Origin: a virus
Reading direction: 5' to 3' (one strand)
Virus record (IMG/VR): IMGVR_UViG_3300009008_000009
Location: 32,001-96,000 of that record
DNA: 64,000 bases
The notes under the pieces are model-generated. The model was not told the DNA's origin. It was given only the letters and a program-made list of their open reading frames with translations, and ran no database searches. A program made the translations under genes and the position numbers. Shown here piece by piece: positions 1 to 39,843 of the stretch. Positions within the stretch are counted from its first letter, which is position 1. Each line of letters starts with the position of its first letter.

Positions 1-170
1 TCGATGCCCATTCGATCTGATGTCGCCGTGCGTCAGCACAGACGGTGTGATGGTTGGTTTCTCTGTATCCCCGTTCCACGACCAGCGCCCCGGCGACGTA
101 ATGATTCCGTGGGGCTCGTCGCACCCGGGGCACCAGAAAAAGAGTTGTCCTCCTTGTACTGGCTGAACCT

Positions 171-794
171 TCACCGGATAGTACCAAGAGTCCGATGAGT
201 TGTACCAGTCTTCCCAACCCCCGGAGGAAGTTCAGAAAATCCAATGTCAGTGGAAAGATCAACATGTATAGAATGTTGTTTCCGCATAGACACCGGATCA
301 ATCACCGTCCCCCTCTCTGGTATTGTACTCGTAGCTAGATAGCGTGTCTTATACTCAGGGTTTCGCAACCGCTGGTCACGCCGTGAATGTGGATACATCC
401 GTTTGAATATCCCCCGAATGGTCTCTGGCTTGACATCGCGGTGATACAGCATCATACAGTAGTTAGCAATGTCGACCACGTCGCCCTTGGGAATGTGCTC
501 AACAAACATCCGAACAAGATCTTCTTCTGAGCAGATCTTGGGGTCGTCCCATCCGTGCTTGCCGTTCTCCTCACTCTGCCACTCCATCTCTTCGTTCATG
601 GCAACTGAGAACTCCAGCACCGCCTGCTCGTCCTTACCGTCCATGGGAACTTGAGTATCGATCCAGTCACTGAGTCTAGAAACGGCGAAGAAAGTATCTT
701 CTGGAATGTCCTCGATCTTCTTATCGCGGTCGAAAAGTACCGCTTCCAACAAGGGACGCAACTTGAACAACATGGTCTTCAACATGGTAGTCAT
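171..794 (-). CDS. Hypothetical phage protein, possibly with an all-alpha MazG-like NTP-pyrophosphatase-type motif
   Basis: 207-aa ORF overlapping the upstream stop; motif HIPKGDVVDIANYCMML resembles conserved phage 'KGDxxDVANxxMML' proteins. Confidence 0.5.
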   Translation of the reverse strand: MTTMLKTMLFKLRPLLEAVLFDRDKKIEDIPEDTFFAVSRLSDWIDTQVPMDGKDEQAVLEFSVAMNEEMEWQSEENGKHGWDDPKICSEEDLVRMFVEHIPKGDVVDIANYCMMLYHRDVKPETIRGIFKRMYPHSRRDQRLRNPEYKTRYLATSTIPERGTVIDPVSMRKQHSIHVDLSTDIGFSELPPGVGKTGTTHRTLGTIR

Positions 795-1159
795 GTGCCT
801 TTTCTCCCAACTAGTTGATCAACCCCAGCTGCCTGTCCGACTTCAACCGTGCGCCATTCGCTTGAGTTAGCCATACGAAAGTAAACGGAAGCGCCGGACG
901 GTGCCTCGAGCGCGGCCACTACGGCACTACCCATTGCAAGAGTGTTTCCGGTTCCCGCAGGGACAGTCTCTTCATCAATCACCCGACCATCGAGTACGGT
1001 AACAATATGATGTGCATCAGTTGCGTAATGTGAAAGTTCCTGCTCAGGTGAGAAATCTTTCTGAAGCAAGGTGTCCTCCGAAGGGTTGTCGACGCCGAAA
1101 CCAGCGAGCTGGTCCTTAAGCTGACCTAACTGGCGGAACCAGACATGACCGTACGTCAC
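791..1159 (-). CDS. Hypothetical protein
   Basis: 122-aa ORF, GTG start after AAAGG; stop overlaps the next start. Confidence 0.55.
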   Translation of the reverse strand: MTYGHVWFRQLGQLKDQLAGFGVDNPSEDTLLQKDFSPEQELSHYATDAHHIVTVLDGRVIDEETVPAGTGNTLAMGSAVVAALEAPSGASVYFRMANSSEWRTVEVGQAAGVDQLVGRKGT

Positions 1160-1195
1160 AATACCACGCCTTTCCGCTCCGCTAGAGAAGTGGTG

Positions 1196-1750
1196 TTACT
1201 TACCGACCTTCTCAAACTTAACCACAATGAAGCGACCGAATGGTCCCTTGTTCTGCGGACGGTAGTCTCCAATGCCAATCCGACGTCCGCCGTACACGAG
1301 GGCTTCGTTTACCGTCTCCGGCTTGAAGTCCTCCTCATCGAACTCAATGTCGAACTCCAACGCCCACTCTGGAAGATGAGGACGATGGCGAACAATTCTC
1401 CCCTTGGTTGCCCGAACAACCACCGGACGTGAGTCGATCTGCCAACTCTGATTTTCATGGGGAATGGAGAAGGGAGTAATCACAATGGCACCAGAAGCGT
1501 ACAGGGATGAGAGCGTTGAACGCCCCTGCTTCTGCTTCTTACCTGCCTCGGTCAACATCGCAATAATGTGCTGCGAAGGCTGATAGATTGTACCATCTTC
1601 CATACGGTACAACGCATTTGCAGCCTGTGCCTTGTAGTCCGGGTTCTGCTTCTTCTGTTTCGGACCCGTGTCCATCTGCTCTTCGATGGGGAACCTGTTA
1701 TGTAACATCCCCGGTTCAATACCCTCGAGTCGTACATGGTAAGTCAGCAT
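1196..1750 (-). CDS. Stand-alone Cas7/RAMP-like (RRM-fold) protein; candidate effector for the adjacent pentamer-repeat RNA
   Basis: 184 aa; N-terminal strand YHVRLEGIEPGMLHN, 'GTIYQPSQHI' (RAMP-like xxYIPxxxI), thumb-like DSRPVVV..GRIVRHRP, C-terminal Gly-rich loop GIGDYRPQNKGPFGRF; RBS-like CGGAG upstream. Confidence 0.75.
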   Translation of the reverse strand: MLTYHVRLEGIEPGMLHNRFPIEEQMDTGPKQKKQNPDYKAQAANALYRMEDGTIYQPSQHIIAMLTEAGKKQKQGRSTLSSLYASGAIVITPFSIPHENQSWQIDSRPVVVRATKGRIVRHRPHLPEWALEFDIEFDEEDFKPETVNEALVYGGRRIGIGDYRPQNKGPFGRFIVVKFEKVGK

Positions 1751-1775
1751 CTTTCATCATCTCCGTTTGTTAAAA

Positions 1776-1855
1776 CTTCCGTACCTTACCTAACCTAGCC
1801 TGACCAATACTCTCCTCGCCCAGCGTTACCGAGCCAGACAGGACCATACCAGGCC
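1776..1855 (-). repeat. Pentamer array A: 16 x (GGY-NN)
   Basis: + strand cttcc gtacc ttacc taacc tagcc tgacc aatac tctcc tcgcc cagcg ttacc gagcc agaca ggacc atacc aggcc; 13/16 units end in CC with strict 5-nt period. Confidence 0.9.
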
Positions 1856-1890
1856 GACTTTTATGCTATGAGACTCTTGTTGACTTACAA

Positions 1891-1960
1891 ATCCCGTACC
1901 TTTCCTTACCAGACCGGACCCCTCCTTGCCATACCTTACCGGACCCCGCCCCGCAATGCC
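1891..1960 (-). repeat. Pentamer array B: 14 x (GGY-NN), degenerate extension to ~1975
   Basis: + strand atccc gtacc tttcc ttacc agacc ggacc cctcc ttgcc atacc ttacc ggacc ccgcc ccgca atgcc; 13/14 units end in CC. Confidence 0.9.
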
Positions 1961-2010
1961 AGATCAAATCCGCCCAGTTTGTATAACAACTTTCGCTTAG
2001 CAACGAAAGA

Positions 2011-2382
2011 TCATCCGTATCCATCCTTCCCGTATTCCATCTCTAACATAAGCTCCTGAATCCTGTGCCCAGCCACCCGCAAAGGATCAACCGTGTTCAT
2101 CCGTGCTGACGGATGAGGTGCATGGACAATTTCACACGGACAACATACAGATGATAATGTATCCTGTGCAACCTTTCCGAGAGCAAGAATGACCTTCGGT
2201 CGAGCCACATCTATAACCTTCTTGACGTGATTCCGGTCGACCGGCGTGTTGTCGCCACAGTAGTTTCCGACCCTTGGTGCCACCTCCTCGTACATCCAAG
2301 ACATGCAAACGTCGCCAAACGCACGGCGCAGTGTCTTGCCCACCCGGCCACCATTAAAGTTGATGACCCGGATCATCCGCAT
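2011..2382 (-). CDS. Small uracil-DNA glycosylase-like protein (possibly N-terminally truncated)
   Basis: PKVILALGKVA and HAPHPSAR motifs of the UDG superfamily C-terminal half. Confidence 0.6.
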   Translation of the reverse strand: MRMIRVINFNGGRVGKTLRRAFGDVCMSWMYEEVAPRVGNYCGDNTPVDRNHVKKVIDVARPKVILALGKVAQDTLSSVCCPCEIVHAPHPSARMNTVDPLRVAGHRIQELMLEMEYGKDGYG

Positions 2383-2564
2383 GCGGCCTTCGTAGCACCC
2401 TTGAGCTTTGGTGTGTAGACATCGAAGATGTCCTTCTCCGGGTCCACCAACTTGGATGCGTCGTGGCTGATAGCCCGACGTTTCAGTTCCTCGATAACCG
2501 CAGTAATTCGACGAGCTACCTGATCGATATGTTCAACGGTAGCTTCTGTTGAGTCGTAGCTCAT
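2373..2564 (-). pseudogene. Truncated DUF5662-like HD-domain gene
   Basis: EHIDQV...RAISHDASKL..PEKDIFDVYTPKLKG matches the N-half of this family; ends after 63 aa with no HHxxH half. Confidence 0.55.
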
Positions 2565-3106
2565 ACAGTCTTACCCCCTCGTTTCTTTCGGAAGGCCAGC
2601 AACCCGCTCACTGCAATCGGACGGTCTACAGTTATGTCGTCGGCGCAGAGAAGATCAGCATACTGATCCGAGTCGACCTTTCGGTACCACTCCATCTCAT
2701 CACTTGTGTATGTGTTTATAAATGACTTCGCTGCCCTGACTGCCTTGTCCTTGTCTACACCGCGACCAAGTGCCGATCCGGTGCGAGGATCGAAGGCAAG
2801 ATAAACAGATCCCCATAGACGTTTGGCAGCGGAGCGTGCGTACGGAAAGAGATCGCCGATCTGGCTGTTCAGGGCGTACCGGGTGAGATTCGCAAATGAC
2901 GATGCCCAGTCTTTCCAGTCACCAGTCGGCATTCCCCAAGTGAAGATACCAGTCGTCGGGCTCAGTGACCCCACCGCTGGCTTCTTGATCTTGACCACGT
3001 AGATCTGAACACCCCGGTGACGTCCACCATCGTGAGTGTTGGCCACGGCCTTCTTACTCAACCGCCGTTTCTTGACCCCAGTGCTATCGCGAAGAAACAG
3101 ATGCAT
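2561..3106 (-). CDS. Hypothetical protein (start uncertain; the 326-aa ORF call overlaps the next gene)
   Basis: In-frame ATG at 3106 near the end of the upstream gene; stop overlaps the next ATG. Confidence 0.45.
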   Translation of the reverse strand: MHLFLRDSTGVKKRRLSKKAVANTHDGGRHRGVQIYVVKIKKPAVGSLSPTTGIFTWGMPTGDWKDWASSFANLTRYALNSQIGDLFPYARSAAKRLWGSVYLAFDPRTGSALGRGVDKDKAVRAAKSFINTYTSDEMEWYRKVDSDQYADLLCADDITVDRPIAVSGLLAFRKKRGGKTV

Positions 3107-3584
3107 TGTCTCGGCGCTCCTTGCACTCATTACAAATGTCGCGTTCGTATTGACAGTGCGGACAGTAAATCTGGTCGCAGACTTCACACGAACGTACGTC
3201 CCCGGACAGTATCTCCCGTGGGCTGCCACCGCTTTTAACGCAGTTCGAACAGTACCACTTATCGTCAACTTCAATGGTAGACTCGTCCAACGCATAAAAG
3301 CCACAGGTGTCCTTCGACCCCCGTGGCTCGTCCCAGCGCTGACAGTGGCCGTCAGAAATGAGCTGGGTCGACCTTCCGGGGATGTGTCGATGTAGATCTT
3401 CCACGGTCGCAACCAGCAGCTCGGGTCGAGATCCCAAGTACAGGCCACCGTCGTTGTCCTGCCAGATCTCGTCACCTGCGGCGAGCTCGTACGTACCGCG
3501 AAGTCCCTTAAATCGGATGGCCAGCACCGTGTTCCGACCACCGTCGATGATCTTAGTGGTGATTGTGGCCAGCGCCTTCTTCAT
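3084..3584 (-). CDS. Cys-rich zinc-finger protein
   Basis: Multiple CxxC pairs (CSNC, CEVC, CPHC, CNEC); starts immediately after the Dam-like stop. Confidence 0.65.
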   Translation of the reverse strand: MKKALATITTKIIDGGRNTVLAIRFKGLRGTYELAAGDEIWQDNDGGLYLGSRPELLVATVEDLHRHIPGRSTQLISDGHCQRWDEPRGSKDTCGFYALDESTIEVDDKWYCSNCVKSGGSPREILSGDVRSCEVCDQIYCPHCQYERDICNECKERRDNASVSSR

Positions 3585-4652
3585 CTAATCCTCCTCTGCA
3601 ATCCTCCTTAACTTCAGTCCCTTACTCACTGGAACCTGTACCTTCTTCTGGTGCTCAACCACCTCAACGCCGTCCTGCTGCTCTGCACCGTTCCTGAACG
3701 TGAGCAGGTTGCGTGGTCGGTAGCAATGAGGAGAGAACCAAACGGTCTCCCTCGACGCGTTCTGGACAGCTTGTGAGTTGCGGTCCTTGCTACTGCCACT
3801 GAAGCCACCTACAGCTTTCCACCTTACCTCTTCCCAGCCCGGCAGTTCGACGTAGCCTTCGTAACCGCACAGTGCAATGCGATACGTCGGATCGTCACCG
3901 TGTTCCCGGCACCAGTCGGCTGCAGCGTCCCAGACTTCCGCGCTGTCCTCATCGTACATACCCATTACCCGGTCGCCCTTGTACGGCGGATCAAGGACCA
4001 CCCCGATAGACTTGTAGGTTCCGGTTCCGTCTTCCCTTGCATTACGAACATAACCCTCCCCTGTATAGGAATCTGACAGGACACGTTCCCATGAGCCGTT
4101 ACAGATGAGGACACCGCGCAAGCGACGGTGCAATGTTTGGATGTACTTCTGGAGCTCTTCGCCATGATAGCAGTTCACCCCACATCGACCGCTGACCGGC
4201 TTCTTGACACCGGCGATGACGCTGGAGAATCCTGAACCCAACCATGCGCTGATTCCCCATAACCACTTAGCAGCGATCTCGACGTCATTCCACATCTCGT
4301 CGGACTTCAACTTGGGAATGATCAGACCACGGTTCTCTGTCAGGGCGTTGTTGACCGCCACGAGGTCCGCTTCGACGATTGGACGCTGGAGTAGCTCGAT
4401 GAGCTTGCCCGGACTATACGCAATGGCCCGCCATGCGTTAACGAGATAGCCATCGAGATCGTTGATCACCTCGTTCGGTGGGTCTTCGAAATCGATACCG
4501 GGACGACCTAAAAGAGTCGCGGCGGAACCTACAAAGGGTTCAATGAACCGTTGTGGGTTTCCAAGGCGACTCCAGATGGTTGGTGCAATGCGGCTCTTTC
4601 CACCGAAGTATGGAAAGGGTGCCTTGATAGTCTCGTTGCGTCTTAGAAGCAT
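3585..4652 (-). CDS. DNA adenine methyltransferase, D12/Dam-like
   Basis: PFPYFGGKS, FIEPFVGSAA (motif I), EVINDLD, VLDPPY (motif IV), ETVWFS. Confidence 0.9.
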   Translation of the reverse strand: MLLRRNETIKAPFPYFGGKSRIAPTIWSRLGNPQRFIEPFVGSAATLLGRPGIDFEDPPNEVINDLDGYLVNAWRAIAYSPGKLIELLQRPIVEADLVAVNNALTENRGLIIPKLKSDEMWNDVEIAAKWLWGISAWLGSGFSSVIAGVKKPVSGRCGVNCYHGEELQKYIQTLHRRLRGVLICNGSWERVLSDSYTGEGYVRNAREDGTGTYKSIGVVLDPPYKGDRVMGMYDEDSAEVWDAAADWCREHGDDPTYRIALCGYEGYVELPGWEEVRWKAVGGFSGSSKDRNSQAVQNASRETVWFSPHCYRPRNLLTFRNGAEQQDGVEVVEHQKKVQVPVSKGLKLRRIAEED

Positions 4653-7742: not shown

Positions 7743-7868
7743 CTTGATCAAGCGAGCTGCGATCACTTCACAGCACGCACCACACTGAAACTCATCATCT
7801 TCTTCGCAGGAACCCGACTCGTACTCTTCCCCACAGACAGGGCACTGTACCAAGTGACTATTCGTCAT
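7686..7868 (-). CDS. 60-aa acidic zinc-ribbon mini-protein (LysW-like architecture)
   Basis: RBS AAAGGAG then ATG at 7868; CPVC...CGAC, acidic C-terminus EVDTDGD. Confidence 0.65.
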   Translation of the reverse strand: MTNSHLVQCPVCGEEYESGSCEEDDEFQCGACCEVIAARLIKNDDNVDRWVLVEVDTDGD

Positions 7869-8709
7869 CGGTGTTCTCCTTTGTATGCCGAAACCAACGA
7901 TGATAATGTTGATCGTTGGGTTCTTGTTGAGGTGGACACCGACGGAGATTAAGAATTTGTTCATCTTGTTTATTTATTCGCTTCTCTGCTATCTTGAAGT
8001 ACGTTTCATCAAGTTCGATTCCGATGAAGTCCCGGTTGAGGTTCTTACATGCTACTCCTGTTGTTCCGCTTCCCATTGTGAAATCTAATACCGTTTCACC
8101 CTCATTAGTGTATGTCTTGATTAGGTATTCCATCAGGGCAACTGGTTTTTGGGTTGGGTGTAATTTATTCCCTTTTGGTGTGTTTGATACACTATTAAAA
8201 AATAATACACTTTTAGGGTTTACTCTGTTTGGGTCATATTGCTTAGCTTCTTGCTTACCCAAAGAAATATGGTTACTTGAACTTTTAGACTGTATTGGTT
8301 TTTTTGCCCTAACCTTACCTGTGTCCGACCTCTCTCTCATAATTTTATTGTATGTTGGCTTTCCTTTTTTTATAAAAACTGAAATCATTTCGTGATACTT
8401 CATCGGCATAAATGAGCTTGTAGCCATACCTGTAGGCATTGATTTTTCCCAAATCCAATCATACTTATAGTTCTTAATATTACTCATCCTCAAAGCACTA
8501 CTAAAAGGCTCGCTCCCAAACAAAACAATAGCCCCGTTCGGTTTAATAATCCGCTTCAACTGCTCCCACATAAGTTCCAAGGGAATGATGCTGTCCCACT
8601 TACAAGCTGTAGTTCCGTATGGCGGGTCGCATATCACGGCATCTATGCTGCCCGTTTCAATGTCCTTCATCTTCTCAAGACAATCGCCATGTATTAAGTC
8701 TATTTTCAT
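7858..8709 (-). CDS. DNA methyltransferase, N6/N4 beta class (copy 2)
   Basis: GDCLE, CDPPYG, HPTQKPVAL, VLDFTMGSGTTG; AT-rich. Confidence 0.93.
   Translation of the reverse strand: MKIDLIHGDCLEKMKDIETGSIDAVICDPPYGTTACKWDSIIPLELMWEQLKRIIKPNGAIVLFGSEPFSSALRMSNIKNYKYDWIWEKSMPTGMATSSFMPMKYHEMISVFIKKGKPTYNKIMRERSDTGKVRAKKPIQSKSSSNHISLGKQEAKQYDPNRVNPKSVLFFNSVSNTPKGNKLHPTQKPVALMEYLIKTYTNEGETVLDFTMGSGTTGVACKNLNRDFIGIELDETYFKIAEKRINKQDEQILNLRRCPPQQEPNDQHYHRWFRHTKENTDDE
7896..7955. repeat. 60-bp perfect inverted repeat, right arm
   Basis: aacgatgataatgttgatcgttgggttcttgttgaggtggacaccgacggagattaagaa. Confidence 0.95.
7965..8016. repeat. 52-bp direct repeat, copy 1 (3' end of MTase)
   Basis: Identical to 8776-8827. 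Confidence 0.9.
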
Positions 8710-8710
8710 T

Positions 8711-9496
8711 TTATATATCCATTCTTATTTGTTCATATGGAATTCTCCGGTGACCCAGCCGGTTGAACTCAACTCCTTGTTTATTTATTCGCTTCTCTGC
8801 TATCTTGAAGTACGTTTCATCAAGTTCTATGCCGATGAAGTTTCTGTTTGTGTTTTTACATGCTACTCCAGTTGTGCCGCTTCCCATTGTGAAATCTAAA
8901 ACTGTCTCGCCTTCGTTAGTGTATGTTTTAATTAGGTATTCCATAAGCGCAACAGGCTTTTGTGTGGGGTGTAGTCCTCTTTCTTGCTTAAAGTCGATCA
9001 CCCGCTTCGGTAACCTATCCCCGTTGTTTATTGTCGTTGTCTCCCGAAATACGGCCCCATTCAGCTCGTTCAGCCTGTGTTTTTTATCCCGTTTAACGGT
9101 ATACGGCTTGCCCGGCTCTTTTTGGGGGTTATACATAGTTTTTCCAGATGAGAAAACCACGACGTCCTCGACATCATTTAAAGGCCGAATTTTAGCCATA
9201 AACGGGTCGACCCCTTGAGGTTTACGGTAAACCCAACAATATCTAAACATCTTCATATTGGAAGCAATCAGCGTTGTAGTAAATGGCTGGCTTGCCGTCA
9301 TAACAATAGCACCGTTCGGTTTAATGACCCGCTTCAACTGCTCCCACATCGGCTCTAAAGGGATAACTGAGTCCCACTTACAAGCGGTTGTCCCATAAGG
9401 GGGGTCAGTAATAATAGCATCTACTACTACACCCCCGGCTATAAGCCTATCCATAACCTCTAAGCAATCACCCCGCATCAAGTCAATCTTTAACAT
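8711..9496 (-). CDS. DNA methyltransferase, N6/N4 beta class (copy 1)
   Basis: GDCLE, TDPPYG, HPTQKPVAL, VLDFTMGSGTTG. Confidence 0.93.
   Translation of the reverse strand: MLKIDLMRGDCLEVMDRLIAGGVVVDAIITDPPYGTTACKWDSVIPLEPMWEQLKRVIKPNGAIVMTASQPFTTTLIASNMKMFRYCWVYRKPQGVDPFMAKIRPLNDVEDVVVFSSGKTMYNPQKEPGKPYTVKRDKKHRLNELNGAVFRETTTINNGDRLPKRVIDFKQERGLHPTQKPVALMEYLIKTYTNEGETVLDFTMGSGTTGVACKNTNRNFIGIELDETYFKIAEKRINKQGVEFNRLGHRRIPYEQIRMDI
8776..8827. repeat. 52-bp direct repeat, copy 2 (3' end of MTase)
   Basis: cttgtttatttattcgcttctctgctatcttgaagtacgtttcatcaagttc, identical to 7965-8016. Confidence 0.9.
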
Positions 9497-13704: not shown

Positions 13705-14634
13705 TCACACGCTGTCCTGTATAATAGTCACAGGTGGGCTTAGTAAGGTCTTCGGCAACTTATCTCGTGCAAGACCTACACAGCTACTGTCCAGTTCGAA
13801 CAAGAGATAGTGACGTCGTCTGTTTCTTGCAACCACCCCGGTAGTACCGGTTCCAGCAAACGGATCGAAAACAATACCACCCTCCGGGCTCCCGGCCAGT
13901 ACCATAGGTTCAATAAGTGATTCTGGATACACAGCTACGTGGCCAGCCTGTTTAGAGTTTGGTGGAACGGTCCACACCGACCTCTTCCTCCGCTTACCAT
14001 TTGCCGCCCACGTGCGCTTGTTGTCAGCGTACTGGTGGTTAAATCCTTCCTTACCCCGAGCCATTGGACCAACTGCGCGACGTTTAACGGTGTCTGGATG
14101 AGCTTGCATTCGCTGTGGTCCCTTTACCGCTGGTTCTTGTATGGCCTCATAGTCAAAGTAGTACTTGGAGCTTTTGCTGAACATGAATATGTACTCATGA
14201 GATCTTACACATCTGTCTTTCACCATTTCAGGCATTGGGTTTGGCTTATGCCATATGTCGTCTTGGCGGAGGTACCAACCTGACGCTCGGAGTGCAAGTG
14301 CAAGTGTCCATGGTATCCCAATAAGATCTTTAACCTTTATGTCACCACCGACACCTCTCTTTGACGACGCATACGTATCCCCAATTACAACCCATAGTGT
14401 TCCGTCTGACATGAGCACCCGTTTTACTTCTGTAAATAGATCTACAAGATAGTTAATAAATTCTTCTGGAGTGGGCTCAAGTCCAATCTGCCCGGAAACT
14501 TGGTAGTCACGTAACCCGTAGTACGGAGGGCTGGTAACGCACATGTTAATAGACTCATCCGGTAGCTTCTTAGTGAGTTGTAGTGCATCACCTATGACCA
14601 TAGAGTCACGTATAAATGGATTTAACGTTAGCAT
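13705..14634 (-). CDS. DNA methyltransferase, N4-C/N6-A beta class
   Basis: CVTSPPYYGLRDY, WHKPNPMPE, HVAVYPE, VFDPFAGTGTTG. Confidence 0.92.
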   Translation of the reverse strand: MLTLNPFIRDSMVIGDALQLTKKLPDESINMCVTSPPYYGLRDYQVSGQIGLEPTPEEFINYLVDLFTEVKRVLMSDGTLWVVIGDTYASSKRGVGGDIKVKDLIGIPWTLALALRASGWYLRQDDIWHKPNPMPEMVKDRCVRSHEYIFMFSKSSKYYFDYEAIQEPAVKGPQRMQAHPDTVKRRAVGPMARGKEGFNHQYADNKRTWAANGKRRKRSVWTVPPNSKQAGHVAVYPESLIEPMVLAGSPEGGIVFDPFAGTGTTGVVARNRRRHYLLFELDSSCVGLARDKLPKTLLSPPVTIIQDSV

Positions 14635-14818: not shown

Positions 14819-16066
14819 TTACGCCCACGCTGCCGTCCTCGGGGCGTTGAGCTGTGGCTCCGGCTCCCACTCCCTGAAGTCGTCCCATCGCGGTATCTCC
14901 TGTACAGGGTCCGGGTGGTCTGGGTCACCTTCCATGATTGCCTCATAGAACTTCCTACGGGCTGGGTTCCACGCTGTTGCATCGTACCGTGCCCGGATGA
15001 ACTTATGGAGGAGATGCCCCTTGTGGTCTCGCAACATTGGATCTTCGATAAGCGGTGCGAGGGCCTTGGTCCATTCAATCGTACTCGGGTTTGCTGACAC
15101 CCACTCAACGATGTCCTCGTTGCCCTCCATGGCGAACGTGTACGGCTGTGCGCTTGAAACTACCGACGCTACACCGTAGGCACCGAACTCCAGTAACTTG
15201 AGCTCGGACTTGGACCTGTTAAACTCGTCGTCCTCCAACGGCACCACCCCTACGTCGAAGTGAGAATACAACCATCCGTACTCGCTGATCGGCAGGGCAC
15301 GCAAGATGCGCTGGCCGTCTGCGGGGATATCGGAAAGAAGTACATCACGCATTGCGTTCCAGACTGTCTCGTGCTCTTCCATCTTACGCTGGGTGAGATT
15401 GCCCAGCTCGTCTTGGTATGCGTACGTTCCCCGGATGTCAAACCCGCCGATGCAGTAAACGACGTCTGGACCATACTGCTTGTACATGGTCGAGAACACG
15501 TTACGCAGCAGGCTGATGTCCTTGAGGTGAGAGCTACCACCTGCCCAGCCTACGTAGGTCACCGGCGACGTGATCCTCGGGTAACGCCACATGGGCTCAA
15601 CCCAGTCGAGGCAGTTCGGGAAGACGTACACCTTGCCACCTCCACCGTGCTCAAATAACCGGTCGCGTAGGTACGGGGTTGTAGTCGTAGCGTAATCGGC
15701 CAGTGCAAGGTTAGCCTTGATCTTCTCCGGGATGCCGTGCTCTTTGTAGCTATGGAATAGGCCGTGGTGTGTCGGCAGCGCGATATCATTATCATCGTTG
15801 TCGTAGACGAGCTTGATACCCTTGTCCTTCGCGGCCAGCATCAACGGGTGGTTGAGATCGACCATCCCCTGCTTATCGTCCTGATGCATACGTGTCCGCT
15901 GGGTCACCAGAATGTCAACACCATCTAAGTCCTCAATCGTCGGCTGGTGGTGGATGATCACATTGATATCAGTGTACTCACCCAACTTCCGCCCGGGCTG
16001 AATCATGCGGTAGTAACCGCAGCCAGCGTTATCGGACGGTACGAACATGATGGTGAACTTAGTCAT
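14819..16066 (-). CDS. Glycosyltransferase (GT-B, phage type)
   Basis: GCGYYRM..P, YDNDD, GWAGGSSH, PLEDDEFNRSKSELKLLEF. Confidence 0.88.
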   Translation of the reverse strand: MTKFTIMFVPSDNAGCGYYRMIQPGRKLGEYTDINVIIHHQPTIEDLDGVDILVTQRTRMHQDDKQGMVDLNHPLMLAAKDKGIKLVYDNDDNDIALPTHHGLFHSYKEHGIPEKIKANLALADYATTTTPYLRDRLFEHGGGGKVYVFPNCLDWVEPMWRYPRITSPVTYVGWAGGSSHLKDISLLRNVFSTMYKQYGPDVVYCIGGFDIRGTYAYQDELGNLTQRKMEEHETVWNAMRDVLLSDIPADGQRILRALPISEYGWLYSHFDVGVVPLEDDEFNRSKSELKLLEFGAYGVASVVSSAQPYTFAMEGNEDIVEWVSANPSTIEWTKALAPLIEDPMLRDHKGHLLHKFIRARYDATAWNPARRKFYEAIMEGDPDHPDPVQEIPRWDDFREWEPEPQLNAPRTAAWA

Positions 16067-23206: not shown

Positions 23207-24069
23207 CGTTTAACTCCGGTCATAACCATATCAACAGAAACAGAATCAAGACACTTCGGGGGGTCAAGATTCAACGGGCAGTTCGCCGCCTGATCATCAA
23301 ACTTGCGAATTTCACATTCATTGCATACCCCAGATGAAACAGGGTGGCTAAGTAAGTTGTGATGGGCGTACACCCGGGCGGGTACAACTGAAAAAATAAC
23401 TACAGCGGGTACGAGGTGGCTGGCAGCCACGTGAGCCCCAGCAGAGTCATTACCAATAAACAGACTAGATACAGAAATCAGAGTGGCTGCCTGCCTCCAC
23501 GTTGTCTCACCTCGGTAGTCTACAAAGCGAGGATCGTCAATACGTATTTGAGGTGAGTCAGAAGTACCAATCTGTACCACCCACAGCGGAGTGGAGCTCA
23601 AAAGCTCAAGAGCAACCTGCCGGAAACGGTCGACATCCCACTCACGAGTGCGCCATCCAGCTCCAGTGTCTATGGTAACATAACCGCCCTTGATCATGGA
23701 GTGTCCGGCATAATTGTAGGCTGGAGAACAAATCTTGGATGGAAATTCGTCTGCAAGTCCCAGACAAAGAACAGGAACCCTGTCCGCAAGAACGTCTGGT
23801 TCCAAGGTTACACCAGCCTGACCTGCAAAGTGATCTACAATGTGCTGGTCATAGCGCACGGCACCGAAGGGTGGATGTAGTATCTTTTCACCACCCCCAA
23901 CGTCACCATCACGAACATATGGGTTGTACTTCCATACGTCAGGAAATCGAGTGGACTCATTCTGCCACTCGATCTTGATCTCTTCATTAGGGTTCTGAAT
24001 TGCGTACCGTCGAACGGCAGGGGTCATACAAAGCTGGTCTCCACGCCCGCCCCGCACCTTGAAAATCAT
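23188..24069 (-). CDS. Glycosyltransferase family 9 (heptosyltransferase-like)
   Basis: GGRGDQLCMTP, FIGNDSAGAHVAA, C-terminal Cys cluster. Confidence 0.85.
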   Translation of the reverse strand: MIFKVRGGRGDQLCMTPAVRRYAIQNPNEEIKIEWQNESTRFPDVWKYNPYVRDGDVGGGEKILHPPFGAVRYDQHIVDHFAGQAGVTLEPDVLADRVPVLCLGLADEFPSKICSPAYNYAGHSMIKGGYVTIDTGAGWRTREWDVDRFRQVALELLSSTPLWVVQIGTSDSPQIRIDDPRFVDYRGETTWRQAATLISVSSLFIGNDSAGAHVAASHLVPAVVIFSVVPARVYAHHNLLSHPVSSGVCNECEIRKFDDQAANCPLNLDPPKCLDSVSVDMVMTGVKRCIALP

Positions 24070-24857
24070 GACTCAGTCTCCCGCTTTTTCAGCTTCAGCG
24101 GCTTCTTCTTTTTCAGCTTCATCGGTTCCTTGACTGGCTGCTCCTTGAACATGTCTGGCCACAACTTCGGTCCCCACTTGAAGTAAGCCCGGTCCTTACT
24201 GGCCTTCTGAGTTTCAGCGTGCTCCGTGGATACCTGACTCGGGTGCATCCTATACAGGTTCAAGGGTGCCGGGATGTTGGCGAATCGCATGTCAGTGGTT
24301 GCCAAAATGCGAAGCCACATCTCGATGTCCTCGGCGTGTCTGAAGTCGGTGTCATACCCCCCGGCCTCCTTGACCTTGTCGGTCCTGAACATCACTGTCG
24401 GATGACCAAGAGCTGTGTAAGTCTTGAACCCTTCGACAATTGCATCGTGGTCTGTCGGGAATTGGACGCCTCCAGACGATCTGCTGTTCTCGTCGATGTA
24501 GTCAAAGTTCGTGCCTACAACGTCGATGTCCGGATTCTTCTGTAGGAACTCGAGCTGGGCCTCAAGTCTGCTCGGGTGCATAACATCGTCAGCATCGAAG
24601 CGGGCGGCAAACTCAGTGCTACAGTGCTCAAGCATTGTATTGAGCGCCGCGATGAGACCTTGGTTCTGTTTTCGACGAAGAATAGTGGTGCGGTCGTCCA
24701 TCATATCACGGAGAATGGTCTCGGAGTTGTCCGTGCAGCCGTCCAGCAGTGCAATAAGATGAAAGTCGGACATGCTCTGCATCTGAATACCCTGCAACGC
24801 CTCAGTCAGATACTTCTCGGCGTTGTAAATGGGCAGGAGGATTGATACCTGTGCCAT
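24066..24857 (-). CDS. Glycosyltransferase family 2
   Basis: SILLPIYN, DGCTD, ARFDADD, HPTVMFR, AEDIEMW. Confidence 0.92.
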   Translation of the reverse strand: MAQVSILLPIYNAEKYLTEALQGIQMQSMSDFHLIALLDGCTDNSETILRDMMDDRTTILRRKQNQGLIAALNTMLEHCSTEFAARFDADDVMHPSRLEAQLEFLQKNPDIDVVGTNFDYIDENSRSSGGVQFPTDHDAIVEGFKTYTALGHPTVMFRTDKVKEAGGYDTDFRHAEDIEMWLRILATTDMRFANIPAPLNLYRMHPSQVSTEHAETQKASKDRAYFKWGPKLWPDMFKEQPVKEPMKLKKKKPLKLKKRETES

Positions 24858-25794: not shown

Positions 25795-26661
25795 TTAGTC
25801 AATGTCAATGATTTCAGGTGATAAGTACTTGTCAAACGACGGTCGATGCTTAGCTTTGATCTGCTTCAATATTTGGGGGAAGCGAGCGTTAGCCCCGTGA
25901 GACCGAGCTTCATCATGGTGGCGGTAGAACAACGTCGCCTTCTCCGCCCAGCAGAATTCAGCTCCATGCCCCGCCGCACGAATCCAAAGCTCCCAGTCCT
26001 CAAATCCATCTTTCATGTCAAGGTCAAATCCACCCAGATCTTCAAATAAAGACCTCCGGATAAGCGAGGTCGCTGGTATGTAGTTTGATCGAAGTAGTGC
26101 GCGGAAATCGTAGTCGTGCTGCTGAATAGTCCCGTGCTGGGATATGCCGTCGTCCGAGAAGATAGCAACCTTCGGGTAGGCAATGTCAGCCTTCGCGGTG
26201 TGAACCGCCCGCCACATCTCAAATAGAAAGTCTGGGTGCAGGTAGTCGTCACCGTCTACAAAGACAATCCACTCAGACTTACCTTTGGCTGCCACGGTGT
26301 TCCGGGCTTGGCATACGCCGACGTTCTCCCGTGATATCGTAACGTCAATGCCATAGTTGTCCCGGATGCGCCATAGCACCTGCCGGGGTGAGTCACTCTT
26401 GATCCCAGCCTGCGACACAGGTAGTCCAGTCCGCTGGTCGATCCGCTGCTGCAACGTTCTGTTTCCACCTTCGTCAACGGACGCCGACCCAACCGTGGAC
26501 TTTGTCGCAGGGTAGATAATCCCACGCTTTGTACTATGATCGTCAAAAACAAGTACAGAAAAGGGGATGCGTGAGTTCTGCGTAATCGCAGAATCCACGC
26601 ATCTCTCAATGTAGGCAGCATGATTATGAGTTACTACACAAACATCTATCTTACTTTCCAT
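25795..26661 (-). CDS. Glycosyltransferase family 2
   Basis: VVTHN, DDHST, ARN, FVDGDD, GGFD..M..GFEDWELW. Confidence 0.9.
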   Translation of the reverse strand: MESKIDVCVVTHNHAAYIERCVDSAITQNSRIPFSVLVFDDHSTKRGIIYPATKSTVGSASVDEGGNRTLQQRIDQRTGLPVSQAGIKSDSPRQVLWRIRDNYGIDVTISRENVGVCQARNTVAAKGKSEWIVFVDGDDYLHPDFLFEMWRAVHTAKADIAYPKVAIFSDDGISQHGTIQQHDYDFRALLRSNYIPATSLIRRSLFEDLGGFDLDMKDGFEDWELWIRAAGHGAEFCWAEKATLFYRHHDEARSHGANARFPQILKQIKAKHRPSFDKYLSPEIIDID

Positions 26662-27523: not shown

Positions 27524-27876
27524 TCCTCAGCCTCACTTTCCACGTACTTTTCAAGCAAGTACGCCACCACCTCTTCGGCGTTTGTAATGTCTGTTTCCCA
27601 GTTTCCACGAACTTCGACGTAGACTGGAAGATTGACCTTCACACTTGCATACTCAAGGTAGTCCGGGTCAGAGTAAGTCTTCTTGACCCGATTATACTCA
27701 CCGTCACCAGCGGGAATGTTAGCCCACACAGTCGGACGCTCGAACAGGAGCTTGCAAATCTTCTCGCCCTGCTTGCTGGTGGACGCCCACACTGGTGCGT
27801 CACCGACCTTGTGAACTACAACCCCCAGCGGCTTGGTACGCGGAGTTTCATTGAGTACAACAAAGTGCCAGATCAT
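27520..27876 (-). CDS. Hypothetical protein
   Basis: 118 aa, ATGA overlaps on both sides. Confidence 0.65.
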   Translation of the reverse strand: MIWHFVVLNETPRTKPLGVVVHKVGDAPVWASTSKQGEKICKLLFERPTVWANIPAGDGEYNRVKKTYSDPDYLEYASVKVNLPVYVEVRGNWETDITNAEEVVAYLLEKYVESEAEE

Positions 27877-30800
27877 TCCTCCTCCTCGCCGCCCTGCCGA
27901 TATTCCTTGCCGTCAAAGACATGGTCACGGAGAAGCTCGTACATGTTATTGTCCAAGAACTCCAGCTTGTAGGAGTCGGTCTGGTATAGACTGTAAGACT
28001 CAATGAAGTACTCCTCGGCGCTGGTGGCAGCATTTGGATTGATAAACCCAACACCCTCACCAGATCGCGGAGCACCTATGAGCTCAATTCCATCGTCCTC
28101 TATGCGCATGCTCTGCAGCGCAATCTTGGAATCGTAAAGATCGTTTACGGTATCCTGTGCCTCGCTGGCCAAGTCAACAAACTCGCGGCGGGCGCGTTCC
28201 TTTACCACAAACCACGACGGGTCGTCCTCATAGAATGAGAACCCACTGATCAGCAAGCCGTCGTCGGTCTCGTATGATGAAATGTTGCCCCGCTGCGTCT
28301 CGCGAAGCTCATCAAGCTCAACATCGATGCGTAGGTCGGATGGTGGCTTGCCATCACGCTCTTCAATCTCGTCCAGAATGCGCTGTCGTTCCTTCTCAGC
28401 CCACGCACGTGTATCTACGATGTCAGGCACAACGTTAATCGAGGTGTCCTCGATTGGATTCTCCTTAAGGGCCAGCGCGATATCGTCAAGGAGCTCGGTC
28501 GGCACAGACTCAACCGTGGTGCTGCCCTCAGAAACGGTGCCGGTGTTTTCGAACTCAGCCCCCGGAGGTGGAATGAAGTCGTCCCATTCAGCGAATCCAA
28601 CAACTGGCTCGTAACTACCACGACAGTTTGGATGGCCTTCAAACTCCTTCGTCTCTGGGTTCTGGATCAGTGGATACTCAAGCTCAAGAACCTTGGAGAG
28701 ATCAAACTCGAGACCGTCCACCGACCGGCAGTAATCACAAGTCCTGAAGTCCTTTATCTCACGGCGAATGACCTTCTTCACCCCAGCGTCGTACCACTCT
28801 TGAAGCGCAGCCTTGCTGTAGATGTTCATCGTCTCGGTCCGGACGATGCGCTGGTAGATGTTACGCTGGTCGTTCCATACCTCGCCAAGACGGTCTGAAA
28901 GCTCCTCCTCGCTCAGCTTCTCGAAGTCCGGATCGTCGAACTCCTTAAACAGCGCCCGGGTGATATCCTCGATGGGCTCGTCAGCCTTGCTGTGCAACAT
29001 CTCTCGAATGCGGGAAATCACCTCTTCGGATACAGTGGAAACGTTCTGAAGCGCACGGTCGACTGCAGCATCCAAGTTTCGCTGGCGCTGGTCATCGAAC
29101 GCCGCCCGCTTGGCGGAAAGGTAACGGCGACCTCGTCTGGACCTACGCAGGGCCTTAACAACCGTGTCCTGTGCCTTCTCGTAGATGCTCCGGATACGGG
29201 TGGCAAAGTCTGCACCCCCCTCTTCGGAAACGTCGTCCAAGTTGTCACGGAACGCGTGCTCCAAGTCCTCAATGCGGATGTGACCACGTTCTTTCCATCG
29301 ATCAAGCAATCTGGATACGAAGTCTTCTTGCTTCTTATCGAAGGTGTCGATGAGGTTATTCTCGGCGGCAAGGACATCAGACTGGGATGACTTATCCATC
29401 CGGGATGTCATCAGCTTGGTCTGCCAGTCGTTCATCGAGTCCATGTGATCGTCGAGACGAAGTATCTGTGCTCGGAATGATCTACGGTGAACGGTGGGGA
29501 GCTTGGCACGCTTATGGTTAAGCTCAGCTCGCCGTGACTTTCCCGGCGTCTTCTTAGCCCCCGACTCTGTGACGTTCTCGCCAGACTCACCACCCACCGG
29601 AGCCTGCGTTCCCGGCTCCTTTGGCGGTGATGGTGACGTGGGTGGTGGAACTCCGCCACCACTCTCTGATTCTGGTACGTCGGGTGGGGCTGGTGCGGAT
29701 GACTCATCGCTGTCCATCGTCACACCAGCAGGGTCTTCCTTACCCTCATCAACCTTCTCAACATCCTGCTCTTCCTTCGGAAGGAATGTGGACTTCAAGG
29801 TCTTCAATATATCCCTAAAGCCTTCGAGTGCGGTACGTCCCGCAGTGGAGAAGTACTGCTTTCTGGCCTCACCAAGATTGCGGTCGGCCAGAGTACCCTG
29901 CTCCTTATCAAGCCATGTCAGGGCCTCATCGTAGTCAACGTCAAGTGCGTCACAAACAATCTTGAGTGGTAAGTCGCCCCGGTCACGGAGCTGGATCAGT
30001 GAAGATCGAATTGACGCATCGTCAGTCAGGTTCTGTTTATGACGCCAGTTGAAGTCCGGAACGACCGGCTCTTGCACCTCCGTCCTCACCTTGTGGTCAA
30101 GGTCGGCGGACTTTCGTACGTAAAAGTCGTTAGCCAGCGCTGTGGGTAGGAAGACTTTACGCTTGTACACATCTTCCATCATGTTGCGGATCACCAAGTA
30201 CCGTGACATCAGCGTCCGAAGTGCAACACTGGCTGTAGCGAAGTTCGGACCTTCCCCGGAAGTCAACGACTTATTCGTAAACAGTCGCGTCATGATCCGT
30301 TTGTCAATGGCGTCCAGCTCGGGGTTGATTGGCAGTACCTTACCCGTCGACCCAATCACATCGGTGGAAACAGCGTGGTGGGTTATGATGGTAAACATCG
30401 GGTCGTTGTTCGCGGCCAGTAAAAGATCTCGGAAGTTCTGAAGGTCGTTATTAGTCGGCATGTACCCGTCAGGGCCGGGTGTTCCGAGCTTCCACACCCA
30501 CTTCGGGGTGATGTGCCCCTGTGCGATTGCGTTCTGGGCCAGCCGGAGGGTATCACCGTAGAGTAAGTCCTTGATGATCCCCAAGATAATCGACGTGCCT
30601 CGCAAGTCCCACGGCATTGCGCGGTTAGCGACCAGTTCGGTGGAGAAGGAATCGAGCTCTACGTTGACCCCGCTGTTAACAGCGAACCGCACCTCAGGGT
30701 GAATGAGCTCAGCAACCCGACGATCATAGGGGTCGTCCGACTTAACCAAGTTCCGCAGAGGTGCGTCTGGGGCCAGCTCGTAGTGCTCAGCTGGTTCACC

Positions 30801-31391
30801 ATCGTCAGAGTGAGCAAGATAATGACCAACAACCCGAACGTAGGCTGTATTAATGAAAGTCTGATCTACAAATCGATTATAGTCTTCAGACCACCACGAG
30901 TACGGCATCACCTCGCCGAACAACCACCAGCACTTGAGAAAGTTATAGAGGTTGTCAAGCAAGTTCATGTCGTCTGCCATGGTCTCATAGGTGTTCAATA
31001 TCTCCGGGTCTTCAACACCAGTAAGAGAGAATCGTGACAGTGGAAGCTGAGAGTGAATCTCGATAGCGTTACCAACCAGTGGATGAAACTTGAAGTAGTA
31101 TTCAATCCACTCCATTAACACCGGATTCGGATCTCCAACAGTTCCGGGCTGCTGGGGAATGTAAAAGTTGTCAACGTTTAAACGAGGGTCTTTGATTGGT
31201 GGTAGGAGATTCTGAATGTCAGCTGACGCAGTGCTACTCATACCGGCCACAAGACCACCAGCCCCGGGGCGAGACGGTACATGGACTCCGGCTTTATCAA
31301 ACACACCACGAGATGAATCGGCGCCTACCCGGGCATTGCGCTCTATCACATCCTTCTGTGGAAACGGGCGTTTTTCATCACCCATAGTCAA
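27873..31391 (-). CDS. Portal protein fused to a MuF (Mu gpF/SPP1 gp7-like) head morphogenesis domain
   Basis: Downstream of terminase; N-half portal-like (HPLVGNAIE, GTSII, KWVWKLG); RIVRTET, RTCDYC, HPNCRG MuF signature. Confidence 0.8.
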   Translation of the reverse strand: MTMGDEKRPFPQKDVIERNARVGADSSRGVFDKAGVHVPSRPGAGGLVAGMSSTASADIQNLLPPIKDPRLNVDNFYIPQQPGTVGDPNPVLMEWIEYYFKFHPLVGNAIEIHSQLPLSRFSLTGVEDPEILNTYETMADDMNLLDNLYNFLKCWWLFGEVMPYSWWSEDYNRFVDQTFINTAYVRVVGHYLAHSDDGEPAEHYELAPDAPLRNLVKSDDPYDRRVAELIHPEVRFAVNSGVNVELDSFSTELVANRAMPWDLRGTSIILGIIKDLLYGDTLRLAQNAIAQGHITPKWVWKLGTPGPDGYMPTNNDLQNFRDLLLAANNDPMFTIITHHAVSTDVIGSTGKVLPINPELDAIDKRIMTRLFTNKSLTSGEGPNFATASVALRTLMSRYLVIRNMMEDVYKRKVFLPTALANDFYVRKSADLDHKVRTEVQEPVVPDFNWRHKQNLTDDASIRSSLIQLRDRGDLPLKIVCDALDVDYDEALTWLDKEQGTLADRNLGEARKQYFSTAGRTALEGFRDILKTLKSTFLPKEEQDVEKVDEGKEDPAGVTMDSDESSAPAPPDVPESESGGGVPPPTSPSPPKEPGTQAPVGGESGENVTESGAKKTPGKSRRAELNHKRAKLPTVHRRSFRAQILRLDDHMDSMNDWQTKLMTSRMDKSSQSDVLAAENNLIDTFDKKQEDFVSRLLDRWKERGHIRIEDLEHAFRDNLDDVSEEGGADFATRIRSIYEKAQDTVVKALRRSRRGRRYLSAKRAAFDDQRQRNLDAAVDRALQNVSTVSEEVISRIREMLHSKADEPIEDITRALFKEFDDPDFEKLSEEELSDRLGEVWNDQRNIYQRIVRTETMNIYSKAALQEWYDAGVKKVIRREIKDFRTCDYCRSVDGLEFDLSKVLELEYPLIQNPETKEFEGHPNCRGSYEPVVGFAEWDDFIPPPGAEFENTGTVSEGSTTVESVPTELLDDIALALKENPIEDTSINVVPDIVDTRAWAEKERQRILDEIEERDGKPPSDLRIDVELDELRETQRGNISSYETDDGLLISGFSFYEDDPSWFVVKERARREFVDLASEAQDTVNDLYDSKIALQSMRIEDDGIELIGAPRSGEGVGFINPNAATSAEEYFIESYSLYQTDSYKLEFLDNNMYELLRDHVFDGKEYRQGGEEEE

Positions 31392-39081: not shown

Positions 39082-39843
39082 TCAATCTTCATCATCGAAG
39101 TCGTCATCATCCTCGAACATGTCATCGTCATCGTCCTCATCGTCGTCCTCAACGGGCTTCGATTTGGACTTCTTCTTGGACGTTGACTTCTTCTTGGACG
39201 ACTTCTTCTTCGGAGCTGGCTCGTCATCATCATCGTCATCGTCGAAGTCATCATCATCGTCATCGAAGTCGTCATCATCCTCTTCCTCGTCCCGCTTACT
39301 GCGCTTCGACTTGGAGGCTGTCGACTTCTTCTTGGACGTGGACTTCTTCGACTTCTTTTTCTTCTTCGGAGCCGGTTCGTCGTCCTCGTCGTCCTCGTCG
39401 TACTCTTCGATACGTTCGATGTTGGCGTACTCCTTTTCCCCGTCCTTCTTACCGAGGGTGTGGATATAAACCACGGTGCCAATCATCTCATCGATATCGT
39501 AGTCGTCACCGATGTCGACTTCTTCGCCGTTGAGGATATTCAAGTTCTCGGTGTTCTTACCGGAGACGCCACCGTCCTCGGTGATCCAGACCACCATATT
39601 GATCTTCTGCCCGGCAAGAGCATCCTCGTACTTGCCGTTCGGCGATTCGAGAACTTCAAAGGTCAGCTCAAGGCATGGAAACTTCTTCGCGCCCTTGGTC
39701 GTCTCTTTGTAGTCCACCAACTCTGCCAGAAACTTTCCCGTGTCTTTGAGAAAGTTACCAGCCCTACGCTGGAGTTTCATGGGTACTGCCTCCTCAGTCT
39801 TGGTTTTCAGGTGTGAATTCACCAATTCGAGCTTGTATGTCAA
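39082..39843 (-). CDS. Putative ssDNA-binding (OB-like) protein with alternating acidic/basic low-complexity tail; start probably MKLQRR at 39780
   Basis: Beta-rich N-domain, DDDDEPAPKKK repeats, acidic end; GAGG before ATG 39780; sits in the recombination cluster. Confidence 0.55.
   Translation of the reverse strand: MTYKLELVNSHLKTKTEEAVPMKLQRRAGNFLKDTGKFLAELVDYKETTKGAKKFPCLELTFEVLESPNGKYEDALAGQKINMVVWITEDGGVSGKNTENLNILNGEEVDIGDDYDIDEMIGTVVYIHTLGKKDGEKEYANIERIEEYDEDDEDDEPAPKKKKKSKKSTSKKKSTASKSKRSKRDEEEDDDDFDDDDDDFDDDDDDDEPAPKKKSSKKKSTSKKKSKSKPVEDDDEDDDDDMFEDDDDFDDED

Follow-up and report, generated by a model that had tools for sequence, protein, structure and literature searches.

The window, that is, the whole 64-kb stretch of DNA analysed here (positions 32001-96000 of one contig of 127,741 bp), carries on its minus strand a gene for a 184-aa protein which is directly preceded by two arrays of 5-nt repeat units. 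The elements of the locus are as follows, in the direction of transcription of the gene and with names according to the assignment argued for below.

1961..2010, minus strand: leader on the 5' side of array A, in which a terminator-like hairpin (2009..1990) immediately follows the gene before it
1960..1891, minus strand: array A, the vrRNA-A repeat tract, with 14 units (GG in 13/14, pyrimidine (Y) at position 3 in 11/14)
1856..1890, minus strand: spacer of 35 nt, with the vrRNA-A 3' tail and then, immediately 5' of array B, an AT-rich, -10-like element
1855..1776, minus strand: array B, the vrRNA-B repeat tract, with 16 units (GG in 13/16, Y at position 3 in 13/16)
1751..1775, minus strand: link of 25 nt that joins array B to the start codon of vipr, with the shared 3' tail motif of vrRNA-B and a ribosome-binding site, GGAG (1764..1761)
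1196..1750, minus strand: vipr, encoding a minimal RAMP (Cas7-like) protein of 184 aa, as judged from the ORF, its homology to Vipr of Escherichia phage SUSP1 and its predicted fold
791..1159, minus strand: orphan ORF of 122 aa, separated from the 3' end of vipr by 36 nt; by position, the sole candidate accessory (vap) gene, unsupported

Both arrays are contained in the 260-nt gap that separates the vipr start codon from the preceding same-strand gene (stop at 2011), with 25 nt between array B and the start codon and 140 nt between array A and the start codon. On the minus strand of this gap, 27 of the 50 pentamers in the phase of the arrays begin with GG, compared to 0-5 in each of the other four phases, and the 35-nt spacer preserves the 5-nt phase from one array to the other. 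When the two arrays are pooled, GG is present in 26 of the 30 units and the third position is a pyrimidine in 24 of the 30; the units lacking GG are 3 of the 16 in array B and 1 of the 14 in array A. The maximum count of in-phase GG per 12 pentamers reaches 12 and 10 in the two arrays, whereas the same score peaks at 5-8 in 200 Markov-1 simulated 64-kb windows searched on both strands, and no further site in the 64-kb window scores at least 7. Genome-wide (127,741 bp), a threshold of at least 6 of 8 in-phase pentamers recovered only the two arrays and, far from the window, a weak 6-of-8 run at genome positions 3462-3501. Furthermore, Tandem Repeats Finder (TRF) detected a 25-nt (5 x 5) period at positions 1899-1947, inside array A, and the two ORFs of 52 and 63 aa that overlap the arrays are spurious. 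The GGY-NN pentamers that had been noticed in a sequence-only reading of this DNA are thus confirmed as two same-strand arrays of 14 and 16 units in a single 5-nt phase, with a signal far above that in the simulations.

The RAMP-like motifs from which the same reading had predicted the function of the 184-aa ORF, namely, LHN (including H17), IYQPSQHI and GIGDYRP...KGPFGRF, are all present in the translation. The predicted fold was borne out by structural modelling: the AlphaFold2 model (pLDDT 91.4, pTM 0.87) displays an RRM core, a thumb hairpin (residues 104-126) and a glycine-rich loop, and a Foldseek search with this model in a structure library that ends on 2026-04-08 and lacks the Vipr entry yielded 81 matches from the PDB (E <= 1e-3), headed by Csm3, type VII Cas7, Cmr4 and Cas7-11. 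At the sequence level, a single-sequence search matched one PDB chain only, 'SUSP1 Vipr protein' (36pp_D; E 2.8e-7), in which GVGDWRP and SYRP are the counterparts of GIGDYRP and RHRP, respectively. With a profile of 84 relatives, 36pp_D was recovered at E 1.1e-22, with positions 1-184 aligned to positions 1-189 and H17 placed on H17. In the alignment of the 84 sequences, R123, G155, D162, R164 and G172 are invariant. According to the cryo-EM analysis of SUSP1 Vipr, the GGY contacts are made by H17, R138, D177, W178 and R179, and the substitutions D177A and R138A each abolish silencing in SUSP1 (bioRxiv 10.64898/2026.04.26.720927). The counterparts of these residues in the protein described here are H17, R123 and D162-Y163-R164, with W178 of SUSP1 replaced by Y163, so that the aromatic ring is kept. 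Moreover, the ORF is intact and retains all the invariant or nearly invariant residues of the family.

The protein matched no family in Pfam or PADLOC, and its PHROGs assignment was phrog_4652, of 'unknown function' (E 4e-21). The public gene call, P0001, is 170 aa long; because it covers 92% of the ORF and aligns only from profile position 14, it seems to start about 14 codons late, and would thereby lose most of the first beta strand, given that the homologues align from residue 1 of the 184-aa ORF.

VIPR (Viral Interference Programmable Repeat) is a recently described form of RNA-guided DNA recognition with a gapped code, proposed to be both an ancestor of the CRISPR RAMP proteins and a very small programmable silencer. 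A family of Vipr proteins using a 1-nt-skip code for double-stranded DNA, and transcriptional silencing by them, have been reported (bioRxiv 10.64898/2026.04.26.720920, 10.64898/2026.04.26.720927). The guides of these systems, the vrRNAs, are described as tandem GGY/NN (YNNGG/GGYNN) repeats of 9-16 units, in which internal degeneracy is frequent (bioRxiv 10.64898/2026.04.26.720920); the 14 and 16 units of the arrays in the window fall within this range. Escherichia phage SUSP1 carries a Type II VIPR that consists of Vipr, Vap1 and four vrRNAs (PDB 36pp; bioRxiv 10.64898/2026.04.26.720920, 10.64898/2026.04.26.720927). We consider it highly probable that the locus in the window is a VIPR of an uncultured 127.7-kb tailed phage, made up of one vipr gene and of two vrRNA genes located directly 5' of vipr on its strand; an accessory gene could not be recognised. 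The locus is not a member of CRISPR-Cas but a CRISPR-like DNA silencer of an already published kind. Accordingly, the comparison to a 'VIPR' architecture in the sequence-only reading was correct, and the claim of novelty fails because VIPR is already in print, in the two bioRxiv preprints cited above.

We then turned to the relatives of the protein. A search for related loci with the single protein found no relative; an alignment of 12 sequences retrieved 290 relatives from IMG/VR, and 80 loci were kept for the survey of arrays, which were called at 7 or more GG in 8 in-phase pentamers. Same-strand GG arrays were found beside the gene at 71 of the 80 loci, an association that the sequence-only reading had proposed to look for; in total, there were 219 arrays on the strand of the gene, none on the opposite strand and none in the simulated sequences (5 simulations per locus). 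The arrays are located downstream of the gene in 43 of the 80 loci, many loci contain 3-13 arrays, and in several close relatives (e.g. L003, L004 and L005) the end of an array is separated from the gene by 6-97 nt. The runs of 25-43 in-phase units in L003, L008 and L009 probably contain several abutting guides. The remaining 9 loci carry period-5 arrays that are anchored on GC (L013, L014, L015, L033, L050, L058, L061 and L073) or TG (L038). Seven of these 9 arrays lie within about 100 nt of the gene, and those of L050 and L058 are 0.9-1.4 kb upstream. These are probably guides of the 'YNNNG' variant, which is named in the methods of one of the preprints (bioRxiv 10.64898/2026.04.26.720920).

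Among 191 unique arrays of at least 9 units from 65 loci, the consensus unit is G (0.94), G (0.97), Y (0.91), N, N, and the entropy of the NN dinucleotide in the array bodies is 3.8-4.0 of the possible 4 bits. The exception is the units at positions -2 and -3 from the 3' end, where the entropy drops to 2.8-2.95 bits, with AA in 80 and 84 of the 191 arrays. The two arrays in the window end in the same AA-biased manner as those of the clade: the dinucleotides of the terminal units are AA, AA, AC in one guide and TA, AA, AC in the other, the last 3-4 units are common to both, and about 18 nt, comprising the last units and the first bases of the tail, are shared by the two guide ends. The shared last 3-4 units are probably a constant 3' handle rather than specificity positions.

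The 3' tails following these units do not appear to be structured. Tail A can form a weak hairpin (z -2.35, with 4 of 200 shuffled sequences as good) and tail B scores z -0.24, such that neither tail contains a significantly stable structure or an Rfam match; more generally, Rfam yielded 0 matches in positions 1-4000 of the window, and a hammerhead ribozyme was found neither in the window nor in 11 related loci with multiple arrays. In the locus of one IMG/VR relative (L002), Rfam sRNA-Xcc1 (RF02221; 55.2 bits, above the gathering score) was detected at 888-975, about 290 nt upstream of the vipr homologue. On the 5' side, the hairpin at 2009..1990 consists of an 8-pair stem and a 4-nt loop, and counts as a consensus match only because the T run that follows is weak. 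A strict sigma-70 scan returned no promoter on the minus strand and, in particular, no separate vipr promoter between array B and vipr. Given that an AT-rich, -10-like stretch precedes each array in close relatives, the arrays, as judged from sequence, may have separate promoters, with array B having its own.

To gauge the size of the family, the 84-sequence profile was compared with 1.84 billion proteins; at E cut-offs of 1e-3, 1e-10 and 1e-30, it retrieved 8,924, 5,341 and 626 cluster representatives, respectively. The published set is reported to comprise 2,664 unique Vipr proteins from NR, divided into seven types (bioRxiv 10.64898/2026.04.26.720920). Thus, from the 8,924 representatives, the VIPR family looks considerably larger in metagenomes than in the published set, with the libraries and cut-offs behind the two counts being different. 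No accession among the cluster members matched the five seed proteins of the preprint.

The vipr-vap pair is described as typical of VIPR, and stand-alone vipr genes are mentioned in the methods (bioRxiv 10.64898/2026.04.26.720920). We therefore considered the genes surrounding vipr as potential accessory genes. The ORF at 791..1159 has no family in Pfam, PHROG or PADLOC, is absent from 81 homologue loci, and retrieved only its own cluster among 5.8 billion entries and no lead from the ESM Atlas. Likewise, none of the six neighbouring ORFs recurs in the 81 loci. The largest real neighbour clusters among the relatives are present in 8 of the 81 loci (the 3 scanned members being AAA_24) and in 6 of the 81 (the 4 scanned members being GemA), and the scanned members are ordinary backbone genes. 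Thus, no vap gene was identified beside vipr in the window, and no neighbour is common to the 81 loci. The locus nevertheless stays within the published description, because the preprint does not require a vap gene.

The targets of the two guides were sought under the published rule, in which each GGY is replaced by one wildcard position (1-nt skip) and at least 80% of the NN positions must match (after bioRxiv 10.64898/2026.04.26.720920). In the phage's own genome, the best matches were 19/28 and 20/32 NN positions, equal to those of shuffled guides (means 18.6 and 20.1), and the published VIPR systems are likewise reported to be without self-targets (bioRxiv 10.64898/2026.04.26.720920). The larger collections were scanned with exact seeds of 8-10 units, followed by extension with a script, a procedure by which imperfect targets are missed. 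There were 35 seed matches in total: 0, 0, 2, 30 and 0 in scans of viral contigs, 0 and 0 in scans of genome contigs, and 3 in metagenome contigs. None of these extended to 80% NN in the exact-seed scans, the best reaching 72% in viral contigs and 78% at one cellular intergenic site, and the extensions are at chance level. This best site, in L116 (25/32, with 11 consecutive units), is flanked by genes for an MtnA-like protein and a TPR lipoprotein on a 233-kb contig, and was judged to be a chance match. The blank outcome of this search is weak, because exact seeds were required and the collections were limited to viral, genome and metagenome contigs.

By analogy with the experiments on the SUSP1 and P. 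fulva VIPR, the locus may be envisaged to function as follows. Each array would be transcribed as a guide of about 100 nt. One Vipr protomer would then bind each pentamer and sequester its GGY via H17, R123 and the G-loop residues D162-Y163-R164, so that the two guides would assemble filaments of about 14 and 16 protomers. The exposed NN dinucleotides would pair with double-stranded DNA, every third target base being skipped, with predicted footprints of about 42 and 48 bp, and the resulting R-loop triplex would keep a competing mobile element from being transcribed while leaving it uncut. All the elements of this scheme, i.e. the filament, the gapped pairing of NN with double-stranded DNA and the silencing without cleavage, are carried over from the homologues. 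The sequence-only reading had arrived at much the same scheme, with one subunit per GGY, non-contiguous presentation of NN and nuclease-free silencing, and it agrees, by homology, with what has been reported experimentally for the SUSP1 VIPR in the preprints.

Comparison with SUSP1 reveals both common and distinct features. As in the SUSP1 VIPR, the protein is homologous over its full length and keeps the GGY-contact residues, the system is phage-encoded and shows no self-targeting, and the guides are GGY/NN repeats of 9-16 units on the strand of the gene, within flanking intergenic DNA and with a guide upstream. Unlike in SUSP1, no vap1-like neighbour was found, and both guides are upstream of the gene and none downstream; the protein identity is about 20-25% (estimated by eye over the aligned stretch), and W178 corresponds to Y163. 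Furthermore, where the SUSP1 clade has a pseudoknot tail, the guides described here share a short 3' motif with no detectable pseudoknot or stable fold. These particulars, that is, the lack of an identifiable vap gene, the placement of both guides upstream, the semi-constant terminal units that apparently replace a structured tail and the large virulent-type carrier, are modest variations.

The prophage VIPRs of Pseudomonas (the P. fulva clade of the preprint) are also among the closest known systems. The only match to the protein among 50,697 phage records is P21_9 of Pseudomonas phage vB_Pae_LESphi2 (OQ594955; 27.6% identity, E 6e-8), annotated as a 'hypothetical protein'. As in the window, the gene is directly preceded by GG arrays on the same strand, in this case three (L081 2084-2398). 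The arrays comprise 15, 12 and 14 units and the locus (L081, OQ594955.1, 2084-3085) is downstream of the cI/cro region; it seems to represent a VIPR of Liverpool epidemic strain prophage 2 that is not annotated as such in the record. Unlike the phage in the window, LESphi2 is temperate and has a genome of 42 kb, with the vipr-like locus beside cI/cro; a 163-aa gene of no known family follows the vipr homologue, and the array tails are, by eye, rich in hairpins.

The relationship to the CRISPR effectors is more distant. Cas7 proteins polymerise along the guide RNA with a fixed nucleotide period. The protein in the window shares with Csm3, Cmr4, type VII Cas7 and Cas7-11 the RAMP fold, the RRM core, the thumb hairpin and the glycine-rich loop, but differs from Cas7 in sequence (8-14% identity among the matches listed), in the period (5 nt versus 6) and in the non-contiguous guide. 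Polymerisation of Vipr on its guide with a fixed period has been reported for SUSP1 (bioRxiv 10.64898/2026.04.26.720927), and, unlike for Cas7, the target of VIPR is double-stranded DNA read with a 1-nt skip (bioRxiv 10.64898/2026.04.26.720920, 10.64898/2026.04.26.720927). Unlike class 1 CRISPR systems, the locus has neither a repeat-spacer array nor other cas genes. The absence of both, pointed out in the sequence-only reading, was upheld by the PHROGs (70 ORFs) and PADLOC (71 ORFs) searches, neither of which returned a Cas family, and by TRF, a tool that is not a dedicated CRISPR finder, which across the whole window reported, besides the period in array A, only short coding repeats at 39167-39409. 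The latter are overlapping short tandem repeats with periods of 6-27, located in the ORF 39082-39843, where they encode an acidic low-complexity stretch.

The proximity of the arrays to the gene raises the question whether they could act mainly in cis, as a leader of the vipr mRNA rather than as guides in trans, with Vipr coating its own 5' UTR and thereby autoregulating translation. The end of array B 25 nt before the start codon and 11 nt before the GGAG, the similar placement of arrays 6-97 nt before the gene in several close relatives, and the lack of a detectable separate vipr promoter between array B and the gene are all consistent with such a role. However, it cannot account for the arrays located downstream of the gene in 43 of the 80 loci or for the many loci with 3-13 arrays; besides, the NN dinucleotides are hypervariable, as in guides and unlike in a fixed operator, and an upstream vrRNA is reported to be a discrete functional guide in SUSP1 (bioRxiv 10.64898/2026.04.26.720920). 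A predominantly cis-acting role is, accordingly, quite improbable, whereas a dual role is conceivable. We regard as slightly less probable still that the locus is a decaying or inert VIPR remnant, inherited but inactive, with degenerate, targetless guides. The missing GG in 3 of the 16 units of array B and 1 of the 14 of array A would fit with decay, as would the absence of targets in the exact-seed scans and of a vap gene, but the ORF is intact with all the invariant or nearly invariant family residues in place, internal degeneracy of vrRNAs is reported as frequent in the published systems (bioRxiv 10.64898/2026.04.26.720920), and the target blank, coming from exact-seed scans only, is weak.

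Finally, the periodicity could be a by-product of a coding repeat, of G-quadruplex-forming or otherwise structural DNA, or of chance, in which case the ORF would be an orphan CRISPR Cas7 without an array. Spurious ORFs of 52 and 63 aa do overlap the arrays, and GG every 5 nt would, on paper, fit a two-tetrad G4 motif. Nevertheless, a 5-nt period is not divisible by 3, the array signal is far above that in the simulations and strictly same-strand at 71 of the 80 loci, the nearest solved sequence relative of the protein is Vipr rather than any Cas7, and cas genes and a repeat-spacer array are absent from the PHROGs, PADLOC and TRF results; this explanation is hardly credible. The assignment of the locus to VIPR, with the arrays as guides, is thus the one that we favour.

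Within the VIPR assignment, a more specific and rather speculative scenario can be proposed for the vap-less clade, one that we would not expect to hold in full. Rather than a folded tail, the final 3-4 repeat units, with their AA-biased NN and the T/A-rich stretch behind them, would make up the constant part of the guide, at which the filament would be nucleated or capped, and the gene-proximal guide would double as the leader of the vipr mRNA, with free Vipr titrating its own synthesis. Such a locus would be a self-contained, one-protein VIPR module, mobile between unrelated phage backbones and carried here by a large, virulent-type marine phage. More generally, the locus adds no new principle to what has been described, but represents a clean natural minimal form of VIPR, with one protein, two guides and no identifiable accessory gene, in a large phage remote from any cultured one. 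The survey of homologues is useful for cataloguing, with regard to the size of the family in metagenomes and to the semi-constant terminal guide units in the clade.

The phage itself was characterised by PHROGs searches with 70 ORFs of the window, which identified a portal, terminase, DNA polymerase, clamp and clamp loader, primase, baseplate wedge, DnaB-like and other helicases, a UvsX-like recombinase, a sigma factor, several glycosyltransferases and four DNA methyltransferases. Of the 77 ORFs in a crude call, 71 were on the minus strand, and no tRNA was detected in the window. The nearest cultured phages show 24-28% identity in the polymerase and 22-30% in the portal protein; with these relatives at no more than 30% identity and scattered over many host genera, no host was inferred. 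The portal domain (residues 92-524) is part of a 1172-aa ORF (27873-31391), in which it is fused to a head-morphogenesis or minor-head-protein-like domain (approximately residues 715-958), and among cultured phages, the portal part is closest to that of Bacillus phage G (30% identity).

Upstream of the arrays (2011-2564), there are two small genes, one for a 123-aa protein with a sub-threshold match to the uracil-DNA-glycosylase superfamily (E 0.001; 19.6 bits versus a cut-off of 24.3) and the other for a 63-aa DUF5662 protein. The four DNA methyltransferase genes are located at 3585-4652, 7858-8709, 8711-9496 and 13705-14634, two of them being adjacent paralogues, and at least three glycosyltransferase-like genes are found in the first 27 kb (14819-16066, 24066-24857 and 25795-26661). 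Together, these genes suggest heavy modification of DNA or surface, possibly as an anti-restriction measure. At the level of the complete contig, the 50-mer at the start is found again at position 127652 and the 50-mer at the end at position 69 (0-based). The contig ends therefore overlap, as they would in a complete assembly that is circular or terminally redundant.
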